A stretch of 64,000 bases of DNA from Pseudomonadota bacterium (GCA_018819135.1 JAHJQK010000075.1:236-64235); one strand, 5' to 3'. Positions 1-11,885 are shown, numbered from the stretch's first letter. The notes: generated by a model not told the origin, from the sequence alone. A program made the numbers and translations.

Positions 1-105
1 CGCGCTGCGCGCGCCCGAACGGCGAGTTGCGCGGAGCGCCTCGCCCGATTTGTCCGACCGCGCGCTGATTCGCGCGGCCGAACAAAATCGTTCGAGCCGT
101 TAGCC
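1..105 (+). other. 3' portion of a long attC-type recombination site (window begins inside it); R' core GTTAGCC at 99-105
   Basis: 1-99 is 98/99 identical to 4321-4419, and its last ~48 nt recur at 2638-2685. The three copies diverge immediately after ...GCCGTT, the G|TT crossover position of a GTTRRRY-like core. Confidence 0.7.
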
Positions 106-124
106 GTAAGGATGAGGAACTACA

Positions 125-1102
125 ATGAAGAAAGCTGTTTTTATATCATCAACCTTTGAGGATCTGAAGAATCACAGACGTAAAATATGGGACCTCCTGG
201 AAAAATTCCATGTTGACGTCCGTGGTATGGAGCGATTTGGAGCACGGAAAGAGGCTCCGCTAATAACATGCCTTAGTGAGGTCGAACAATGTGATATTTT
301 TGTTGGCATACTCGCCTTCCGTCTAGGTAGTATCGATGAAGATTCAGGCAAATCCTTTACCCAAAGAGAGTATGAAAGGGCCTATGAGCTAAATCGTGAG
401 ATTCTCATATATATGATTGATGAAAAGGATTCACTGATTTCGCCTCAGAATATTGACTTTGATGAAAAACGGGAAAGGCTCATAGCTTTTAAATCAATTC
501 TCAGGGATAGGCACACGGTTGACTTTTTCCTGTCCGAGGATGACTTAGCAGAAAAACTGAAGAGAAAGTTCGATGAGCTTCTCGCATCAAAAGAACTTAG
601 GGAGGACACCTCCACCGACGAATACGGGAATTCTAAAGAAATCATTGGAAAATTTCTGCTGCTTCCGAAAGTCTATTCAGGTCGGGTGGTCAAGCTGAAG
701 GTAGACTTCGTGGGTAATGCTTTCCCAGCTTCAAAATCCCTGTGCTCGAACTTCAATCTCGAATACGGCAAAACGATCGGGGTTAAAGTCAAAATCAAGG
801 CGCCATTGCTTGAGGATGATGCGATCGAGTATGTCTTTGTCGATCAAGGTAACTTAAATGATTTCTTTTCACTGCGACACCGAAAGGAAATAGAAGTCTA
901 TGGGAAGCTTCAGTTTTCGGAAAACAAAATCGAGGAGTTGAAAGCCAATTTTGTAAGGAAGGAATATTATGTTGGAGGAGTCGCTTCTCTATCCCTAAAT
1001 CTGATGGATGCCGAAACCAAAAGAAGCCTGTTTGGAGAGAGGAGAATTGTTGAGGCAGACGGGAGAGTCATCATAAAGCTTACCAAGATCATGGCCACAT
1101 GA
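125..1102 (+). CDS. DUF4062-domain protein (TIR-like / deoxyribosyltransferase-like N-terminal fold) with an uncharacterised C-terminal half; cassette 1
   Basis: 325-aa ORF with an AGGATGAGG SD-like run upstream. The N-terminus (KAVFISSTFEDLKNHR...CDIFVGILAFRLGS...SFTQREYERAY...ILIYMID) fits the DUF4062 pattern from memory. Residues ~165-325 match nothing I recognise. Confidence 0.75.
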   Translation: MKKAVFISSTFEDLKNHRRKIWDLLEKFHVDVRGMERFGARKEAPLITCLSEVEQCDIFVGILAFRLGSIDEDSGKSFTQREYERAYELNREILIYMIDEKDSLISPQNIDFDEKRERLIAFKSILRDRHTVDFFLSEDDLAEKLKRKFDELLASKELREDTSTDEYGNSKEIIGKFLLLPKVYSGRVVKLKVDFVGNAFPASKSLCSNFNLEYGKTIGVKVKIKAPLLEDDAIEYVFVDQGNLNDFFSLRHRKEIEVYGKLQFSENKIEELKANFVRKEYYVGGVASLSLNLMDAETKRSLFGERRIVEADGRVIIKLTKIMAT

Positions 1103-1285
1103 ATTCAAACCCACTACGCCCAACGGCACAAACGGAGGGCTCAAACCCTGACGGCTTCGTCTGTACCGCGCACGTTGCTTGTCTGTCCATTGCGGGCAAA
1201 AAGCAAAAGTAGAATGGCGCCCATTAAATTATGAAATCCTGGAAAAGACGTAAGGTTAAGGACGCAGGAAATTGAACAAAAACTC

Positions 1286-1348
1286 GCCTAACCAGGCGGT
1301 CCACCGGATCGCCGATAAATCCGGCTCCCGGTGACCTTTTTGTTCGAC
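1286..1348 (+). other. attC site (63 nt) closing cassette 1
   Basis: GCCTAAC(R'')-CAGGC-GGTCCACCGG ... CCGGTGACC-TTTTT-GTTCGAC(R'). Geometry is 7-5-L''...L'-5-7, with one unpaired C in top-strand L''. The R'' is a canonical RYYYAAC. Confidence 0.75.
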
Positions 1349-1401
1349 CGCTAACGCAAGACCGGAAAAAAACTTCCGGAATCCAATGATGTGAGGCTGC
1401 A

Positions 1402-2523
1402 ATGCATGGTCCCTACTTCGAAGGCCAACAGCCGAGTGCATGCGGGCACTACTACCCGGATGTCCAGAGATTGCGCGACGAACGCCGTAAAGACGGTTCG
1501 CTCGTTAGATTAATTCAATGTCGGTGGTGTGGCAGAAGCGAACGCGTTATCGACCCTGAACAGTTTAATCCCGATGGTGTTACAGAACTGTCAGAAAAGG
1601 GAGTAAGTCTTCGGTTGGACGAAGAGACTTGGTTAGAGTCAAGTGAAGATGTGAGCGGAATGAATGCACTTGCGGCATTCAATCTCTCGATCCTTGCGAA
1701 CTTCGCCGAGGTATTGCCATTCGTCGTACCGCCCGGTGACAAAAACCGCGACCCACAACCTGGATATGCATTGCTCATGCGTACCCTGGAACTTTTCATC
1801 ATCCAGGTCTTTGCGTCGCTCGATTTGCCCACCATTCCGAAGAGCCGAAGTGCACATGACCTGCTTCACGAAATGGCTGAGCACAAAGCTCTTCCGCCGA
1901 AGCTCCTTGAAGAAATGTCTGAATTGATGGAAAAAAGGGGACTATTCATCCACGCGCTGGAGTCAAGCGTAACACTGAGAATGCTACGTCATGATGCCAT
2001 CCGCGTCGCTCGAATCATCTCATGGTACACGTTCGAATTCGAACGTGCCCACCGAGTCATGCATTTGGACGTACCACAACGAAGTGTCCCGCAGGCGTTC
2101 GATGCACACGGATCGCGCAAACTCTTTCTATGTTACGCGCGCGAAGACGTCGAACGCGCCTTGCACCTTTACAGAATACTGAAGAAACGCGGACATAAAC
2201 CATGGATGGACAAGAAGGACCTGCTTCCCGGTCAAAATTGGGAGCACGAAATCGAAAAAGCGATTCGTGAATCCGCCTTTTTCATCGCCTGCCTTTCACC
2301 GGCCAGCGTCAGCAAAAGGGGGTTCGTCCAAAAGGAGGTCCGCTACGCTCTGCGGGTATTAGACGAGATTCCGCAGAATCAAATATTCATCATTCCAGTC
2401 ATGTTGGAACCATGCAATCCACCGGATCATCTCAGGTCGTTGCAATGGATAACAATTGAGAGTCGTGAGGGCCTTGATAAAATGTTCCGAGCAATTGAAG
2501 GTGTCGATGGGACATCGAATTAA
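1402..2523 (+). CDS. TIR-domain protein with N-terminal Cys/His cluster and a helical HEPN-like (DUF4145-like) middle region; cassette 2
   Basis: 373 aa, GTGAGG SD 5 nt upstream. The C-terminus (KLFLCYAREDVERA...WMDKKDLLPGQNW...AFFIACLSPASVSKRGFVQKEVRYAL) is TIR-like. The middle has RGLFIH (Rx4H). The N-terminus has CGH...CRWCG. Confidence 0.8.
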   Translation: MHGPYFEGQQPSACGHYYPDVQRLRDERRKDGSLVRLIQCRWCGRSERVIDPEQFNPDGVTELSEKGVSLRLDEETWLESSEDVSGMNALAAFNLSILANFAEVLPFVVPPGDKNRDPQPGYALLMRTLELFIIQVFASLDLPTIPKSRSAHDLLHEMAEHKALPPKLLEEMSELMEKRGLFIHALESSVTLRMLRHDAIRVARIISWYTFEFERAHRVMHLDVPQRSVPQAFDAHGSRKLFLCYAREDVERALHLYRILKKRGHKPWMDKKDLLPGQNWEHEIEKAIRESAFFIACLSPASVSKRGFVQKEVRYALRVLDEIPQNQIFIIPVMLEPCNPPDHLRSLQWITIESREGLDKMFRAIEGVDGTSN

Positions 2524-2553
2524 AGGCATCCGACATTAACTTTAATCAGCGCG

Positions 2554-2691
2554 GTCGAACAAAGCGTTGCACCGGAGCGGCGGGCAGCGCATCTTCTGAG
2601 AATGGAAGTCGTTCGCCGCCGCCCGGTGAAATTATTCGTTCGGCCGCGCGCTGATTCGCGCGGCCGAACAAAATCGTTCGAGCCGTTGGAC
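2554..2691 (+). other. long composite attC-type site closing cassette 2 (R'' GTCGAAC 2554-2560; R' GTTGGAC 2685-2691; inner R'-like GTTCGGC 2638-2644)
   Basis: R'' is the exact complement of cassette 2's first bases (G|TTCGAC at 1342-1348). There is a long imperfect palindrome CACCGGAGCGGCGGGC...GCCGCCGCCCGGTG. The 3' 48 nt are shared with 52-99 and 4372-4419. Confidence 0.65.
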
Positions 2692-2698
2692 ATAACAT

Positions 2699-4242
2699 AT
2701 GAAAATTAAAAAAGAGTCAATTAAATGGGCATTAAAATCTCTTGAAAATTTAGGAGATAGCGACCTGTTTGCCCGACCTTTCGAACTTTCAATCATCCAA
2801 GATTTAGGTGATATCGCCGTTTCGGAATTAGCCTCCTTGGATTTATCTTCTTTTGGCTACGGTCCTTCTCGCAGATTCATTGTTCCAAAAGATGACCTAT
2901 CATATCGCACGGCATCCCAATTAGATCCTCTAAACAGTGTGCTACTAACAACGTTAATTTATGAATATGGGCATCTAATTGAAGCCAAAAGGAGGTCAAA
3001 AGAAGAAAAAAAGTTTTTAGTTATCGTTTTGCTCCGGATACCGACGGACAACTCTATGATTCCGCTAATTCATGGAATGATTTTTGGAGGACTTGCTACG
3101 AAGTCTCCCAAAAGTATAATTACGTTGTAATTCTAGATATAGCTGATTTTTATAACCAAATTTATCATCACGCCCTTGAAAACCAACTAATAGATGCTGG
3201 GTTACCAAATCAGGCGCTGAAGTGGATTATTGGACTATGCAGCGCTCTATCAGCAAAAGTCTCCCGAGGTGTACCAGTTGGGCCTCATGCTTCTCACATT
3301 CTCGCTGAGGCAGTCTTGTCGCCTGTAGATAACGTTCTATCTCATCAGGGAATAAATTTTTGTAGGTATGTTGATGATATCGTTCTTTTCGCCGAATCAG
3401 AGATAGAAGCACGATCTCTCATTTTAACGCTCGCAAACACTCTTGACAAACAGCAAAAGTTGCTGATCCAAAGACATAAAACCCAATTAATGGATCGTGA
3501 TAAATTTCGAAAGTTTTGCCTCGAAATGATAGAAGATAGACCCATAGACGATCTTGAAAGGGATCTAGTTTTAATCATTCAAAAACACTCTCATGGTAAC
3601 CCTTATAGAATAGTCTGGATAAGCGAATTGTCTGACGACGAGCTTTCGAAATTTAGACCTGATGTAATTGAAAAGATTGTTACAGATTATTTAGAGAAGC
3701 CAGAACCAGATTATATAAGGTTGAGATGGTTTATAAGAAGGTTAGCTCAAATTGGTCACCCGGCAGGCATTAATATATTTCTTCGCGAGTTTTCAAGACT
3801 TTTGCCAGCCTTGAGTGAAATTTGCCGCTATTTTCTGGCTGTAAGTCAGGTGACTGATCTCGATTGGGAAAATATTGGTCAAGATCTGTTAACTTTCTTC
3901 GAGAATAAAATAATTAAATCAAATGAATATTACCAACTCTCTATTTTATCTCTATTTGCAAGTCAGCAAAAATTTGACAATTTACCGAGTATAATAAAAC
4001 TTTATCAAAATGCGTCGCCGTATTTGAGGAGAGAAATTATTATTTGCGCAGCAAAACATAATGCGACTGATTGGATCAGAGAGCTAAAAGAAACTTTCCC
4101 AACTATGGATCCCTGGAATCGTAGAGCCTTTATCTATGCATCATCAATTTTCCCTGCAGAAGAAAGAAAATTCTTCTTAAAAAATATTCAAGGCAATGAT
4201 TTATTGGAGGAATTAATTATCAAATGGATTAAATCGGAATAA
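2699..4242 (+). CDS. reverse transcriptase of the defence-associated UG/Abi type with a long alpha-helical C-terminal region; reading frame broken once (frame 2 to frame 1) at the A7 run 3006-3012; cassette 3
   Basis: Track ORFs 2699-3130 and 3316-4242 are joined by open frame 1 from 2983. RT motifs seen: RRFIVPKDDLSYR, ILDIADFYNQIYHH, GVPVGPHASHILAE, FCRYVDDIVLF (YVDD). One extra A would restore a ~514-aa protein. Confidence 0.8.
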
Positions 4243-4245
4243 ATT

Positions 4246-4425
4246 GTCCAACAATCGGCTGAAGATGGACTGGCAAATGAGCGCAGCGGATTTGCTAGCC
4301 ACTTAGCCGAAGCGTTCGGTCGCGCTGCGCGCGCCCGAACGGCGAGTTGCGCGGAGCGCCTCGCCCGATTTGTCCGGCCGCGCGCTGATTCGCGCGGCCG
4401 AACAAAATCGTTCGAGCCGTTGGGC
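4246..4425 (+). other. long composite attC-type site closing cassette 3 (R'' GTCCAAC 4246-4252; R' GTTGGGC 4419-4425)
   Basis: R'' is the exact complement of cassette 3's first bases (G|TTGGAC at 2685-2691). Contains the 99-nt block also present at 1-99 and the hairpin GTCCGGCCGCGCG-CTGATT-CGCGCGGCCGAAC. Confidence 0.65.
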
Positions 4426-4437
4426 AGAGGAGAAGGC

Positions 4438-4905
4438 ATGAAGACCCTGTTTGAAGTTTGTGTCAAGCAGATGAACGAAGACAACAGCCGCTTCTGGACC
4501 GTCTTTCACGTTTTTACGTTGATGAACGGGGGACTGCTCGCCTTGTCTGCCTCAAGCAGCACCAACCCGGAGGTGAAACTTGGCATAGCTATTGTCGCGG
4601 GACTCATCTGTGTGCTCTGGCGACAGATACAAGCAAGGATGGGTTTCTGGTCCCGACGGTGGGAAGAGGATGCTGAGCGCATTGAGGAACTTTATGTCGC
4701 TGACGTTAACGAGGAACGTCAGCGGAACAACCTTCCCCCTCTACCGAATACGGCGAAGGTTTTTCTTGGGCGCAAGCCGAAAACGAGAGGCAAAGGAGAG
4801 AAACGGTGGCCTGGCATGTCCACAAGGAATGCAGGGACGTATCTCCCACTTTTGTTCTTGCTTGCTTGGGTGCTGTTCTTCGGGGCAACGCTTCGGGGTC
4901 TATGA
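4438..4905 (+). CDS. small predicted membrane protein (about 3 TM segments), no recognised family; cassette 4
   Basis: ATG at 4438 preceded by GAGGAGAAGG. Hydrophobic stretches: FWTVFHVFTLMNGGLLALSA, LGIAIVAGLICVLW, YLPLLFLLAWVLFFGATL. The track start at 4420 is the TTG of the R' box and is unlikely to be the real start. Confidence 0.6.
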   Translation: MKTLFEVCVKQMNEDNSRFWTVFHVFTLMNGGLLALSASSSTNPEVKLGIAIVAGLICVLWRQIQARMGFWSRRWEEDAERIEELYVADVNEERQRNNLPPLPNTAKVFLGRKPKTRGKGEKRWPGMSTRNAGTYLPLLFLLAWVLFFGATLRGL

Positions 4906-4949
4906 ATCTCGGGGGCGCCACGCGTGGAGCCGGTCCAGCAGCAGGCTCT

Positions 4950-5008
4950 GCCCAACACGCCGCTCCAGCCGACGCGGTAGTCCGCGCGGCTGAGCGGCAA
5001 CGTTGGGC
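4950..5008 (+). other. canonical attC site (59 nt) closing cassette 4
   Basis: GCCCAAC-ACGCC-GCTCCAG-CCGACGCGGTAGTCCGCGCGG-CTGAGCG-GCAAC-GTTGGGC. R''/R' match 7/7 and fit RYYYAAC/GTTRRRY exactly. One unpaired C in top-strand L''. R'' complements cassette 4's first bases (4419-4425). Confidence 0.85.
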
Positions 5009-5463
5009 ATGAGATAGATCATGTCGATATCTGACAAGACAAGAAAATGGCGTGAAGCGGGACGCCCTTAAATAATTCAATTTCTGGCTTTTGTGGTTTA
5101 TAATGCTACCTCCAGGGAGAGGTTTATAGATTCTTCCCCGAAGTAGAACCATGATTTTTTATTTCACCATCCCCAATATCGCTCCACCAACCTTCTGGAG
5201 CCGATAACTCGCTTCAGCCGGTAATCCTTCAAACTGCGCCGCCCTTGTATAAGCATTCACGACATGGAACATAGTATTTCCCGCTTCTTAATTCCATTCC
5301 CATTCAACCGCTTCCCTTTCCTTTTCCCCAAGCTGGAATTGCCGGTTGAAGTTTTTAAAGAACTCCGCATCCAGATGACACTGAACCTGGGTATCAAGGC
5401 CATATCCAGCGGGTTGTACTGGGGGGCATATAGGAAGCAGGCGATCTAGACCCTTGCGATCTT

Positions 5464-5916
5464 TCACTGCAGGAAATCATCAAGAACCAGAATGGTTATT
5501 CCTTCAGCCCGGAGAGTACGCAGACGGGCATCATTGGTTATAAAAGCATCTGCCTTTTCAATTATTGACGTAGCCATCAGGAGGGCATCCGGAGTTCGGA
5601 TTCTATATTTAGAACGAAGGCGCGCGGCTTCCCTGGCGATGAGGTAATCCGGAGATTTTAGTTCCGTATTTGGTAGGGAGAAAAGAAAGCGTTCAAAAGC
5701 CGCGATTCGGTCCTGCTGGCCAGCGGTAAACGGTTGGACCAAAAGCTCGGTCACGGAAACTGTAGATAATACTGCGATCAAAGAACCTTCGGCAACCGCT
5801 GCAAAAATATTTTCCGTCAAATTCGCATACGGCTCCAGATCTTCGAGGTGATAAATCAGAAGGGAACTATCTAATCCTACTTTCTTCAGCTTTTTTAATT
5901 CATTCTGAAATGCCAT
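5464..5916 (-). CDS. vapC: PIN-domain toxin (VapC family)
   Basis: 150 aa. Has VGLDSSLLIYHLED ... TVSVTELL ... ITNDARL acidic PIN signature positions. Sits 4 nt downstream of the AbrB-type antitoxin gene. Confidence 0.8.
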   Translation of the reverse strand: MAFQNELKKLKKVGLDSSLLIYHLEDLEPYANLTENIFAAVAEGSLIAVLSTVSVTELLVQPFTAGQQDRIAAFERFLFSLPNTELKSPDYLIAREAARLRSKYRIRTPDALLMATSIIEKADAFITNDARLRTLRAEGITILVLDDFLQ

Positions 5917-5920
5917 GATC

Positions 5921-6172
5921 CTATGCCCACGACCGGCGTTCCTTCTCGAGATACCGTTCCACTGCCTTTCGATCTTTTCCCCATGTCCCCTTCATCAGGC
6001 CCCGGGTCGTCTTGGCATATTCCCGCGGGCGTGTTAAAACAACCTTTCCAGATTCGAAAGTAACGAGGAGTTCTTCTCCTTCCTTCACCCCTAAGGCTTC
6101 CCTCATTTCCTTGGGAATCACAAATTGCCCTTTTTTGCTTATTCTTACCGCCTTTATAATATTCATACTCAA
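5921..6172 (-). CDS. vapB: AbrB/SpoVT-family antitoxin (VapB-type)
   Basis: 83 aa. AVRISKKGQFVIPKEMREALGVKEGEELLV is a typical SpoVT/AbrB swapped-hairpin motif. Forms an operon with vapC. Confidence 0.75.
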   Translation of the reverse strand: MSMNIIKAVRISKKGQFVIPKEMREALGVKEGEELLVTFESGKVVLTRPREYAKTTRGLMKGTWGKDRKAVERYLEKERRSWA

Positions 6173-6177
6173 TCCTC

Positions 6178-6426
6178 CTAAGTCATATTATAAATAAAAT
6201 GGTAAGAAAATTGCAAGAGTAAATTGGGAATGGGACTATGGAACTTTGTATTTGGTATTATGTCCCCGGAATACCCGAGAATATTGACATCGTGAACTTT
6301 GCCATGAGTTATGCGGATAAAACAGGGAATGCTTCCCCGCAAATCCATGAGGGTATGGACCTTGACAGCCCCTTTGTGTTTGCGAAAATGGGCCCAGGGA
6401 AACAGGGTGAGGTATCTTTCCGTCAT
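6178..6426 (-). pseudogene. fragment of an IS4/IS5-type DDE transposase
   Basis: FPWAHFRKHKGAVKVHTLMDLRGSIPCFIRITHGKVHDVNIL is the start of a DDE_Tnp_4-like catalytic domain. Only ~60 informative residues remain; no N-terminus or rest of the DDE triad. Confidence 0.6.
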
Positions 6427-6452
6427 CGCCAGGGTCTTTGATAGGGCTTTAA

Positions 6453-9400
6453 CTACTTTGCACCTCCCACTGGGGGCGCAACTTCTATTGCTTCTTTTTT
6501 CTTGAGAAATCTGGCGAGGAAAGCGTCAACCACATCATAGGCCACCGGCACCACAATGAGCGTCAAGAAAAGGGAGGTGAGCAATCCTCCGATCACCGCG
6601 ATTCCCATGGGCGAACGGGTTTCGGCGCCTTCCCCGACACCCAGGGCTACGGGCATCATCCCGAAAATCATGGCAAAGGTGGTCATCAGAATCGGCCTCA
6701 ATCTCACGGGACCCGCTTCCAATATCGCTTCCCTCCTCGCCAACCCCCTCTGTCTCAGGGTATTGGTGTAATCCACGAGCAGGATCGCGTTCTTCTTTAC
6801 CAGGCCCATCAGGAGAATGAGCCCGATGAAGCTGAAAATATTGAGTGTCCGCCCGGTTAGAAGAAGAGCGCCGAAAGCCCCGATAAAAGCAAGAGGCAGG
6901 GACATCAAAATAATGAACGGCTGGACAAAGCTTTCAAACTGGGCAGCCAGAACCATGTAGGCCATGACGATGCCGAGAACCAAGGCAAACATTAAAAACT
7001 CGAAGGATTCCCCCATGGTATCGGCCATTCCTTTGTATCTTCCCGAGTATTCAAAAGGGAGGATCTTCGTGGCAATGGCATCCAACTCATTTTTTGCCTG
7101 GCCTAAGGGCTTGCTTTCCAGGTTGGCAAAGAGCGTGATAGCCCTCTGGCGGTCCACCCGGTTGATAATACTCGGCCCCCCCGCCTCTTGGATTTTCACG
7201 ATGTTGGCGATTTCCACCAGTCTCCCATCTCGGGAGCGCACATAAAGCCGGCCGATATCCTCGGGGCTGGTTCTACCCTCGGCCCAGAGTCTGGCTCGGA
7301 CGTCGTACCTTCGGCCCCGCGCTTCATCTTTGAATTTGGTCACATCCACTTCGCCGCCGATGAGGATGTTGATCACCTCGGCTACGCTGCCAATGTCCAC
7401 GCCCAGGTCAGCGGCCTTGTTGCGGTCGATGAGGATGCGACTTTCCGGTTTTCCGGCCTCCAGAGAAGTATCCACGTCTACAATCCCCGGAAGTTTGGAA
7501 AACTGATTCGTGACCTCACGGGAATAGGTTTCCAGCTCTTTTAGATTCCTTCCCCGGATGCTGTACTGGATGGGAACCATTCTCCGACCGCCTCCGATCA
7601 TGGCCACATCTTCCACCGAAACTTTCAGCCCGATGATCGAGGCCAGCGCCTTGCGGACCTCCTTCTTGATCTGTTCCTGTTTTTTCTTTCTCTCCGCTTT
7701 CGTTTTCAAAGTGCTGAACAGGACGGCCTTGTTGATTTCCTCGGTGGTCCCTGTTCCCAGGGCGTAATAGATGGAGACCACCTCCGGAAATTTGCGGAGA
7801 ATTTCCTCTGCTTTCCGAAACATTCCATCGGCGGCGTCAACGGAATAATCTACGGGGGCCTGCATGCGGATAATGAACCGGCCCTGGTCTTCCGGGGGGA
7901 TGAATTCCTTTCCTAAAAAATTGGTGAGCGCAAGGCCGCCCAGAAAGGCCAGCAGAGCCAATCCCAAGACCGCAGCCCGGTGCCGCAGCGCCAGGGCCAG
8001 CAATTTCTTATAGGCCCCTTCCGACTTCTTATAGAATCGATCAAACCAACCCAGGGCATCGAACCGTCTTTTCCCCTTTTCGGGGACATGGTTCCGGGAC
8101 GACCTCAGCCATTGCGATGCCAGCATGGGGGTAAGGGTAAAGGAAACAAACCAGGATACCATGACTGCAAAAACGACCGTCATGGCGAACTGGAAGAAGA
8201 ACCTTCCGATAACCCCTTTCATGAAGGCTACCGGAAGAAATATGACAATGATGGCCAGGGTGGTGGCCGACACGGCGAGGCCGATCTCGGAGGTGGCAAA
8301 GGACGCGGCTTTCTGGGGGGACATGCCCCCTTCGATGTGGCGGTGGATGTTTTCCACGACGATGATGGCGTCATCGATGAGGATCCCAATGGAAAGGGAG
8401 AGAGCCAGCATGGACATGTTGTTGAAAGTGAAATTGAAGGCCCGCATGATGCCAAAGGTGGCCACGACCGAAATCGGGATGGCCAAGGCGCTGATCAGCG
8501 TGATGCTCAGACTCTTTAAGAAGAGCAACACCGCCAGCGTGGCAAAGAACCCCCCATAAATTAAGTGATGCTGTACTTCCCGGACGGAACGGTTGATGAA
8601 GTCGGATTGGTCGAAGGCGATCTCCAATTTCATTCCCGCAGGGAGAGTGGTTTTGATCCGCTCCAGCTCCTTTTTCACCCGATTGATAACCTCGACCGTA
8701 TTGGTTCCCGACTGTTTCTGAACCCCCAACCCCACCGCGGGAACTCCGTTAAACCGGACGATGGAGCGCTTCTCCGCCATCCCGTCCTCCGCCCGCCCGA
8801 TGTCCCGGAGCCTGACCGGAGCATTGTTGTAGTATCCTACGATCAGGTCATTGAATTCCTGGGGGTTCGGAACTTCTCCTTTGATTTTTACCGAGTATTC
8901 CTTCGTGGTGCTCTCAATCCTTCCCCCGGGCAACTCCACATTCTCCCGTTGCAGAGTCCGCAAAACGTCGTGGGCGGTCAGCTTATAGGCCTCGAGTTTG
9001 TAGCGGTCCAGCCAGATGCGCACCTGCCGTAACCGCAGGCCCCCCATCCGGATGGCGCCGACTTCGTTGACCCGTTGCAGCTGTTCTTTCAATACCTCAT
9101 CCGTATAGGTGGAAAGCTCCCGAACGGACTTTTGGCCCGAAAGGGCCATCCACAATACCGGGGAAGCATCAGGGTCGACTTTTTCGATGACCGGTTCGTC
9201 GATGTCATTGGGCAATTTGGACCTGATGGCGGCGATCTTTTCTCGAACGTCCTGCACGGCCAAATCGATGTCCCTTTCGAGAACGAACTCCACGGTGATC
9301 ACGGACACGCTTTCCGCGCTCATGGAGCTGATGGTCTTGACCCCGTTTATGGTGTTGACGGCCTCCTCGATCTTATCCGTGACGTCCACATCCATGATTT

Positions 9401-10797: not shown

Positions 10798-11044
10798 CTC
10801 GCAATCCTTTCCCCCAGCAGACTCACTCTTTTCAATTTTGGGTGTATATCGCTTTGTGAGTCGCACGGAGAATTGAAAATCTTATCCGATCCAAATAATT
10901 TAAGGGTGGGGTTGAGAGATAGTTGAGGTTTGTTCCCCATTTTACAGGAGTTCAACTCTCCCCGTCGGCTCCACCTAATGTTAAGGGGTTGCCAGCCTTT
11001 ATCATGGCTGGCAACCCCTTTCTTTTGCCCCAAAACATTTCCGC

Positions 11045-11446
11045 TTATAGTCCTATAAAATTTCCGAATTTCTTTAAAAACTGTTTGATATCCTGCAGCC
11101 TGGTTTGGATAATCCTGTAGATCTCTGCATCGTCGATATCCCAATAAATATGCACAAGTCTGTTTCTGAACCGCGCCATCTGTATTAGAGAGTTGGTAAA
11201 TTCCGCATCGAAAACTCCTTTTTCCTCCATGACTCTGAAGGTATCGGCGTAGTCTTCGGGCGTGCGGAATCCGTTCTTGGAAATGATATGATTGCTTAGG
11301 TCTACCGCCCCTTCGATGGCCACAATGAGGTTGTATTTAGCGCTCGCCACCTTGTGCGGGTCGGCAGCGAACTCTTCCTCAGAGAGCTTTCTTAAGTCTT
11401 CCAACCTTTGAAGGGCAGAAAGCACTTCGGAGGTAATCTTTCTCAC
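11045..11446 (-). CDS. hepT: HepT (DUF86) HEPN-family toxin
   Basis: 133 aa with RFRNRLVHIY (Rx4H). Lies directly downstream of a minimal nucleotidyltransferase gene. Confidence 0.8.
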   Translation of the reverse strand: MRKITSEVLSALQRLEDLRKLSEEEFAADPHKVASAKYNLIVAIEGAVDLSNHIISKNGFRTPEDYADTFRVMEEKGVFDAEFTNSLIQMARFRNRLVHIYWDIDDAEIYRIIQTRLQDIKQFLKKFGNFIGL

Positions 11447-11456
11447 CTTGTCGGGG

Positions 11457-11885
11457 TTATATTCCAGATCCCATCGCCTCCTTGAGGTACATTTTCCGGA
11501 AAGGAGCGAAGTCGAAATAATTGCTCAGGGTCGCCTCCATAAAATCACAACGCAGGTCGTCATCAATCACAACGATCGGCTTTCCATGCTTGAGTACGTT
11601 GTACCGAAAGGAAAGAGGAGCGTTGTTCAAGACCCGAACCTCTACCGGGTACTTTTTCACCTCTTTGTCTAATTCCGTCTCCATTTCAAGTTCAACCTGA
11701 AGCGAAGGTGAAAAAGGAGGCTTCAGGTAGATGGCGATGTCAATATCTCTGAATCGATCGCCGGAGAAAAACGAACCATGTAAATAAGCAAAAAGAATAT
11801 CGGGCCGGTTTTTGATATAGGCCGTGATGCGCTCTACAATGACTCTTTTCTCATCTGCGCGAATTTTATAATATCTATTTTCCAT
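11457..11885 (-). CDS. mntA: MntA-type minimal nucleotidyltransferase antitoxin
   Basis: 142 aa with LHGSFFSGDRFRDIDIAIYL (GS...DxD NTase motif). Confidence 0.8.
   Translation of the reverse strand: MENRYYKIRADEKRVIVERITAYIKNRPDILFAYLHGSFFSGDRFRDIDIAIYLKPPFSPSLQVELEMETELDKEVKKYPVEVRVLNNAPLSFRYNVLKHGKPIVVIDDDLRCDFMEATLSNYFDFAPFRKMYLKEAMGSGI

Follow-up and report, generated by a model that had tools for sequence, protein, structure and literature searches.

The window analysed here, i.e. a stretch of 64,000 nucleotides from a Pseudomonadota bacterium (GCA_018819135.1, JAHJQK010000075.1:236-64235), carries within 125-4905 four genes that are all co-oriented on the plus strand and that encode, in this order, a DUF4062 protein (O1), a protein composed of a Zn-ribbon-like module, a HEPN-like domain and a TIR domain (O2), a reverse transcriptase (RT) and a small membrane protein (O4). 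A first-pass annotation, made from the sequence alone, had described these genes as integron cassettes and had interpreted them as a candidate bank of undescribed immune modules. The observation proved largely right and the interpretation partly right. The region 100-5002 is an attC-delimited integron cassette array, seen at its distal end, that comprises five cassettes, one of which is devoid of an open reading frame (ORF). It is composed as follows:

1..105, plus strand: 3' part of an attC site, truncated by the start of the window (R' GTTAGCC at 99-105; 99% identity over 101 nt to 4321-4421; exact 42-nt core)
100..1174, plus strand: cassette A with O1 (125-1102, 325 aa); R'' GCCCAAC at 1118-1124, R' GTTGCTT at 1174-1180
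1175..1342, plus strand: ORF-less cassette or spacer that ends in an attC-like hairpin (R' GTTCGAC at 1342-1348), as judged from sequence, DNA folding and boxes
1343..2685, plus strand: cassette B with O2 (1402-2523, 373 aa); R'' GTCGAAC at 2554-2560, R' GTTGGAC at 2685-2691
2686..4419, plus strand: cassette C with an RT of the UG7/DRT8 family in two frames; R'' GTCCAAC at 4246-4252, R' GTTGGGC at 4419-4425
4420..5002, plus strand: cassette D with O4 (4438-4905, 155 aa); R'' GCCCAAC at 4950-4956, R' GTTGGGC at 5002-5008

The attC sites were recognized as pairs of R'' (RYYYAAC) and R' (GTTRRRY) boxes with imperfect palindromes, situated between co-oriented ORFs, and such pairs are present at 1118/1174, 2554/2685, 4246/4419 and 4950/5002. 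An exact 42-nt attC core, for which no copies are expected by chance, occurs three times (60-101, 2646-2687 and 4380-4421), and every copy ends in a GTTRRRY-like box. The strongest evidence for a cassette array, however, is provided by the signature of circular permutation: in cassettes B, C and D the hexamer directly after the G of R' is the exact reverse complement of the cassette's own R'' (the pairs being TTCGAC/GTCGAAC, TTGGAC/GTCCAAC and TTGGGC/GCCCAAC, respectively; chance about 0.012 per case), whereas the signature is imperfect in cassette A. The last attC site (4950-5008), directly after O4, is a canonical hairpin of about 60 nt (GCCCAAC...GTTGGGC, -31.9 kcal/mol by DNA folding). The four genes thus are integron cassettes, as the first-pass annotation had it, on the strength of the boxes, the threefold core and the permutation signature.

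The least certain boundary in the array is the one at 1174. The ORF-less unit that follows it (1175-1342) contains a hairpin at 1271-1348 with perfect 11-nt arms (TTGAACAAAAA / TTTTTGTTCGA) and possibly represents an empty cassette or what is left of one. We also considered O1 and O2 as a single two-gene cassette, the spacer between them (1103-1401) being without the 42-nt core. This possibility was rejected, as the spacer holds an R'' identical to that of the attC site of about 60 nt that follows an O1 homologue in another array (L012), and moreover holds a second hairpin, the R' of which (GTTCGAC) matches O2's own R''. The unit that carries the RT has a G+C fraction of 0.34-0.43, versus 0.50-0.59 in the neighbouring cassettes, and such a sharp contrast is to be expected of cargo that was acquired independently. 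A scan of 1-7000 for Rfam families, promoters and terminators yielded nothing above chance. A 29-nt attC core was found exactly in short contigs (L001-L005) that are binned to metagenome-assembled genomes of Hydrogenedentota, Planctomycetota and Proteobacteria, which implies either an attC type common to several hosts or mis-binning of short integron contigs.

The genomic context of the homologues speaks to the relation between the cassettes. Homologues of O1, O2 and O4 at 76-84% identity sit among other neighbours. For instance, an O1 homologue (79% identical) forms one cassette of the L012 array, beside an integrase fragment, with the same R'' (GCCCAAC) and an attC site of about 60 nt, and the only close homologue of O2 (80%) is preceded by an R'-like box, GCCGTTAAAAC, and by different small genes. 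O4 homologues (about 76% and 80% identical) were encountered in L008 and L009: in L008 the gene is the first beside an integrase fragment, with the 3' untranslated region and R'' conserved as well, and in L009 it is part of an array-like row of small co-oriented genes that includes HigB/HigA-like ones. Among the 15 loci that were retrieved around homologues, none holds two of the four genes. The fact that the homologues recur beside other neighbours implies that the genes are independently mobile and leaves cooperation between the cassettes without support.

Cooperation had been offered as an alternative in the first-pass annotation, for example between the TIR protein as signal generator and the DUF4062 or membrane protein as effector. 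In such a scheme O2 would generate a nucleotide signal that activates O1 or O4, as in the two-component signalling of Thoeris-like systems. We consider this hardly credible. The four genes are adjacent and co-oriented, and a natural DUF4062-TIR_2 fusion exists (P0134, 301 aa, with a TIR domain 54% identical to that of O2), which shows that a combination of the two domain types is feasible. Nevertheless, each gene has its own attC site and its own set of neighbours elsewhere, there is no recognized signal-binding domain (SLOG, SAVED, Macro or STING) in O1 or O4, no Thoeris effector of the ThsA type (SIR2, SLOG, Macro) was found in 1-6500, and the TIR domain of O2 is closest to effector TIRs and not to the signal generator ThsB (see below). 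The reading we prefer, at a probability of roughly 0.6, is that of the distal end of an integron array in which each of the four genes forms its own cassette and would work, if it does so at all, independently as a module of one gene. The domain identities, the boundaries and independence of the cassettes and the frameshift in the RT gene are observed; NADase activity, sensing of phage, abortive infection and any phenotype are predictions.

O1 matches the Pfam family DUF4062 at residues 5-86 (E 4.7e-24). DUF4062 has recently been recognized as a TIR-like domain that degrades nicotinamide adenine dinucleotide (NAD+), i.e. a NADase, and single proteins of about 325 aa, in which it is followed by an auxiliary (AUX) region, are anti-phage systems that act through NAD+-depleting abortive infection (10.64898/2026.05.01.722283; 10.64898/2026.06.25.731849; 10.64898/2026.09.04.749371). 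Of these, Swarozyc (KpSwz) is activated by the phage portal, and Evangelion (Eva01) requires F11, E87 and W162 for defence (preprints of 2026: 10.64898/2026.05.01.722283, 10.64898/2026.06.25.731849); the domain was furthermore renamed NIR and acts in NIR-Avs2, Vulcan and Vesta (10.64898/2026.09.04.749371). O1 resembles Swarozyc and Evangelion in size (325 aa versus 324 and 326), in having an N-terminal TIR-like DUF4062 core followed by an auxiliary C-terminal region, and in being a single stand-alone gene on mobile DNA. It differs from them in that the auxiliary region has no detectable similarity to theirs and in that the identity to Eva01 is only about 23% and is confined to the core.

The AlphaFold2 model of O1 (predicted local distance difference test score 78.6) consists of a Rossmann-like N-terminal domain, a stalk of helices and a C-terminal domain rich in beta structure. 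When compared by Foldseek, the N-terminal domain is similar to the SPARTA TIR, nucleoside deoxyribosyltransferases (NDT), DNPH1 and SARM1, that is to the TIR/NDT fold. A profile of the O1 family matches the solved structure of KpSwz (E 2.5e-10) and human TEP1 (E 8.7e-5), in both cases over the core only, and around LxxCLxEVexxdiFvGIl the core looks closer to TEP1. There are at least 347 homologues of O1, and among the 120 matches listed nearly all cover at least 85% of its length, which indicates that the two-domain protein as a whole constitutes a conserved family. In complete genomes members of this family stand alone, in variable islands of small size with Fic and MNT/HEPN toxin modules next to them.

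The segment of O1 with the candidate catalytic positions reads SFTQREY, with Q80 encoded at 362-364, E82 at 368-370 and Y83 next to it. In 79 aligned sequences of the family Q80 is invariant, and so is a Glu-Tyr pair two residues later, which matches E87-Y88 of Eva01. In the direct alignment with Eva01 (sequence taken from pMW2; 23% identity over the core) F6 and E82-Y83 are paired with F11 and E87-Y88. The possibility that O1 is a dead NADase owing to Q80 was not upheld, for the Glu that Eva01 requires is the second one of TExEY, and that one is retained in O1. Swarozyc and Evangelion seem to use different Glu positions of the TExE[YF] motif. Judged from these comparisons, O1 represents a divergent, large and distinct lineage of the now-known DUF4062+AUX kind, and it would most likely be an abortive-infection protein of the Swarozyc/Evangelion type, in which a component or process of the phage would be sensed by the C-terminal domain and the N-terminal TIR-like domain would, once triggered, hydrolyse NAD+.

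O2 comprises three parts: a Zn-ribbon-like module at residues 1-76 (C14, H16, C40, C43), a HEPN-like helical domain at about 89-221 and a Pfam TIR_2 domain at 242-354 (E 1.7e-29). An exhaustive HMMER search with residues 1-235 showed that the first 76 residues are 36-72% identical to 81 representatives (50% clustering; P0166-P0246), mostly small proteins of about 50-130 aa with a CxH...CxxC pattern and the conserved sequence GPYFxGQxPxxCGHYYPD...CxxCG (window 1402-1630); a Pfam scan of ten of these relatives gave no meaningful match. This relationship implies that the N-terminus of O2 is a captured small Zn-binding protein and that translation truly begins with the ATG at 1402. The middle domain aligns with the N-terminal domains of TIR proteins of about 282 aa that have a conserved R-N-x3-H (hhalign probability 94%, E 9e-8). 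Among 19 aligned proteins three match DUF4145 and two match HepT, both HEPN families, and the DUF4145 matches concern relatives and not O2 itself. The HEPN-like motif of O2 reads R179-G-x3-H184 (R179-x4-H184, nt 1936-1953). The first-pass description of O2 as a Zn-ribbon/HEPN-like/TIR protein thus holds for all three parts, with the qualification that the HEPN motif looks degenerate. Two proteins were found that have all three parts, namely O2 and one other.

At the C-terminal end, the putative catalytic E312 (2335-2337) is invariant in 19 aligned sequences. The surrounding GFVQKEVRYAL resembles the catalytic-Glu motif of SARM1. The best matches of O2, in PADLOC as well as in Foldseek, are effector TIRs, i.e. 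the Argonaute-associated SPARTA TIR-APAZ and SAVED-TIR; the Foldseek result obtained with the whole model is dominated by the TIR domain and says nothing on the fold of the middle domain. The PADLOC models of ThsB match only weakly (E 4e-5 or worse), and the TIR of O2 therefore resembles effector NADases more than the signal generator that the first-pass annotation had seen in it. By hidden Markov model and by fold the TIR is closest to the effector NADases of SPARTA TIR-APAZ, of the SAVED-TIR of CBASS and of SARM1; O2 differs from these in that it has neither a partner nor a domain of the Argonaute, APAZ or SAVED type and in that its sensor half is another one.

For that sensor half a parallel is found in RAZR / PD-T7-4, the ring-activated zinc-finger RNase, which becomes active when it assembles around ring proteins of the phage (PMC13017515). 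The N-terminal two thirds of O2 share with it the order of a small Zn-ribbon-type domain, a linker and a DUF4145-type HEPN-like helical domain. The differences are that the Zn module is CxH..CxxC and not Cys4, that the HEPN motif looks degenerate and that a C-terminal TIR has been added. No PD-T7-4 model was present among the PADLOC matches of O2 at E <= 1, all of which cover the TIR domain only, and residues 1-235 had no match in the PDB. The likeness to RAZR is one of domain order only, without a detectable sequence relationship.

We propose that O2 is most likely a single-protein abortive-infection module, the output of which would be the TIR NADase (E312) and in which sensing and a scaffold for oligomerization would be provided by the Zn-ribbon together with the degenerate HEPN-like domain. 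One can take this further and envisage a new kind of single-protein abortive infection, in which a free-standing small CxH..CxxC Zn-ribbon protein was taken up and joined to a TIR NADase and to a DUF4145/HEPN scaffold that has lost its catalysis, such that the phage sensing and oligomerization of RAZR were rewired from RNA cleavage to NAD+ depletion, with the neighbouring DRT8 RT perhaps gated by a dnaX-like -1 frameshift; this extended scenario is speculative and in our view quite improbable. Elsewhere (L010, 8001-10208, and L011) a HEPN-TIR relative of O2 of 283 aa lies directly upstream of a TIR_2 protein of 410 aa, near genes for a DUF87 ATPase and a DNA methylase, and this arrangement may be a two-TIR defence locus.

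When the two halves of the RT are joined, the protein of 514 aa matches the PADLOC model Drt8 from end to end (E 1.7e-160, 534 bits, residues 2-513 against 1-491 of 493), so that the earlier placement of the RT outside DRT1-9 is wrong. Pfam recognizes RVT_1 (E 1.3e-17) and, weakly, HEAT_2; the YVDD is encoded at 3367-3378 (residue 224), and the C-terminal half is helical and repeat-like. Drt8 corresponds to UG7, which was named DRT type 8 after it had been shown to protect E. coli from phage T5 (Mestre et al. 2022, PMC9226505). UG7 comes in two variants, one with a PD-(D/E)XK partner (the one that was tested, and in which the active site of the partner is required) and one that is solitary, about half of UG7 being without partner (PMC9226505). 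The window RT is like the second variant in that it has no associated gene, and no Pfam or PADLOC nuclease match was obtained among the four window proteins. It would, accordingly to type, be a solitary defence RT of the UG7/DRT8 family.

The closest homologue of the RT (L015:4001-5545) is 78% identical and is an intact single frame of 514 aa; the window gene is carried as an integron cassette, and this relative lies outside integrons, in an island with restriction-modification and helicase genes. Its neighbours are of the defence type: it lies between a type II restriction-modification pair with a UvrD helicase, which matches the models of GajB and of RT-associated helicases, and a protease that matches PADLOC candidate models. 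In L015 2114-5545 the intact UG7 RT follows immediately downstream of the UvrD-type helicase (GajB models, best E 1.1e-62; RTasHel, E 8.8e-52), which hints at a helicase-associated variant of UG7.

The gene in the window had initially been taken for one ORF. In fact it is split by a one-base deficit in an A-run over two ORFs in different frames (2699-3130 and 3316-4242): the coding sequence runs through 2699-3013 in frame 2, which continues to a stop at 3128-3130, and then through 3013-4242 in frame 1, which is open from 3013. Alignment with the L015 homologue at the DNA level reveals exactly one base fewer in the A-run of the window (3006-3012), namely GAAGAAAAAA-AG versus AAAGAAAAAATTG. The site is built as follows:

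2989..3013, plus strand: frameshift site, with the Shine-Dalgarno (SD)-like AAGGAGGT (2989-2996), 10 nt and the heptamer A_AAA_AAG (3007-3013), in phase with the upstream frame

Slippage by -1 on this heptamer joins the two halves into a product of 514 aa, exactly the length of the intact homologue. As assembled, the gene gives no full-length product unless such a shift takes place in the A-run, and hence it is switched off, subject to phase variation, wrongly assembled or, through slippage, expressed at a low level. In dnaX and IS3 frameshift signals an SD-like element is located upstream of a slippery heptamer, and the site in the RT gene has that layout: AGGAGG lies 11 nt before the heptamer, which is in the correct phase, and the upstream part of the gene contains no second A-rich heptamer in phase. 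One could thus imagine a programmed -1 ribosomal frameshift, or a phase-variable A-tract, that keeps a potentially toxic defence RT low or switchable, with a slipped product of precisely the length of the homologue. We nonetheless consider regulation of this kind distinctly improbable. The closest homologue is read in one uninterrupted frame and lacks both the heptamer and the SD-like element, the structure downstream of the site has a z of -1.4 and is thus not significant, cassette C contains five SD-like strings, AGG being a common Arg codon in this gene, and a one-base homopolymer error or mutation fits the data equally well.

O4 matches the Pfam family 8xMP (PF24838, "octameric membrane protein family") with 54.7 bits against a cut-off of 30, over residues 3-152 versus 2-135 of the 136 model positions. 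Its start is the ATG at 4438 and not the TTG at 4420, since the latter lies inside the R' box. The protein had been described as one with three transmembrane segments; two clear hydrophobic segments are present and the third is weaker. The search for relatives was passed by six proteins, the window's own product included, of which the other five are 70-84% identical, and in all three contexts examined (the window, L008 and L009) the gene is part of a cassette-type array. The 8xMP-bearing array of L008 also has, at 10848-11561, a cassette with a TIR domain of the CAP12/Pycsar type, another defence-type domain. No literature on the 8xMP family was found. The claim that all four genes are of an immune type therefore stands for the three that have defence-typical domains, and nothing ties O4 to immunity; to regard it as an immune effector is a guess, and its role need not be defensive.

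Beyond the array the window continues as follows:

5464-5916, minus strand: PIN (VapC-like) toxin (Pfam)
5921-6172, minus strand: MazE/AbrB-type antitoxin (Pfam)
6178-6426, minus strand: remnant of a DDE transposase (Pfam)

The toxin-antitoxin (TA) pair and the transposase remnant, directly past the last attC site, mark the distal boundary of the array, and an RND efflux operon begins at 6453, after the remnant.

Several findings weigh against the reading of the array as a set of independent defence modules. O1 has no match among the models of PADLOC 2.0 or NCBIfam, and the PADLOC miss counts here. Its invariant Q80 occupies the column in which KpSwz has the sole Glu of its SFTE motif (the catalytic E97), it lacks the Q/W/E motif of Evangelion (A-P-L is found at the aligned positions), and its C-terminal region matches no characterized AUX, the PDB and plasmid matches ending at about residues 120-190. 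The R-x4-H of O2 does not keep its position in P0122, its only close homologue (KKRLFSH, shifted), which suggests that the RNase centre of the HEPN-like domain is relaxed, and the N-terminal and linker parts of the structural model of O2 have low confidence. The UG7 system that was tested needed its PD-(D/E)XK partner, for which cassette C has no room, and the RT gene is frameshifted. O4 yielded no link to defence, with no matches in PADLOC, PHROG, the PDB, plasmids or viral contigs. Finally, no intI integrase is present within the window, and the array could thus be an inactive CALIN (cluster of attC sites lacking integron-integrases); here the window starts inside an attC site and the source contig is only about 0.7 kb longer, so that the integrase side is out of view, and an integrase fragment lies upstream of the related arrays in L008 and L012.

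A rival view is that the cargo is mostly not immune, that is, that O1 and O2 are NAD+-consuming toxins or addiction modules which stabilize the array, that O4 is unrelated and that the RT is a decaying pseudogene in an integrase-less CALIN. Apart from the frameshift, the location of the array at a contig end without intI, and the lack of evidence on the function of O4, such a view can draw on the TA pair and the insertion sequence remnant that flank the array, and on the common presence of toxin modules in integron arrays (L009 and L012 contain genes for HigBA and PIN). We regard it as unlikely. There is no adjacent antitoxin-like gene within the cassettes of O1 or O2, the O1 family is strongly conserved at full length in its at least 347 proteins, the RT is intact apart from one base, with 409 codons open downstream and 78% identity to an intact homologue, and all DUF4062+AUX proteins tested so far are defensive.

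The cargo consists of one named family (DRT8/UG7, apparently broken), one divergent DUF4062+AUX lineage, one rare new fusion (ZnR-HEPN-like-TIR) and one protein of no assignable role. The epithet "undescribed" is consequently wrong for the RT and outdated for O1, given Swarozyc, Evangelion and NIR/Vulcan. O2 is the most promising single object of the locus: it is a very rare fusion and could reveal in what way sensor modules become attached to new effectors. The frameshifted RT is of interest as well, as a solitary UG7, the variant that lacks the nuclease partner of the tested system. O1, in turn, belongs to a large and conserved DUF4062 lineage in which Gln occupies one of two candidate catalytic positions, and thereby bears on the question which Glu the family uses.

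That integrons act as reservoirs of compact defence systems is already established, both for mobile integrons (Kieffer 2025, BRiCs) and for sedentary chromosomal integrons, which serve as biobanks (Darracq 2025), as well as by Getz 2025 and by a cassette-capture screen of 2026. The locus is a useful and unsurprising example of integrons that store defence genes, and nothing in it overturns current understanding. The part of this integron literature that we examined does not mention the UG7 RT, DUF4062 and ZnR-HEPN-TIR families; the array adds that a UG7/DRT8 RT and a gene of the DUF4062 NADase type both travel as single attC cassettes. It resembles the published integron defence cassettes in that the candidates are compact, mostly consist of a single gene, have an attC site each and are stacked in one array. 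It differs from them in that it stems from an uncultured environmental bacterium and not from Vibrio or a clinical plasmid, and it thereby extends the idea of the integron as a defence biobank from the latter two to uncultured environmental bacteria.

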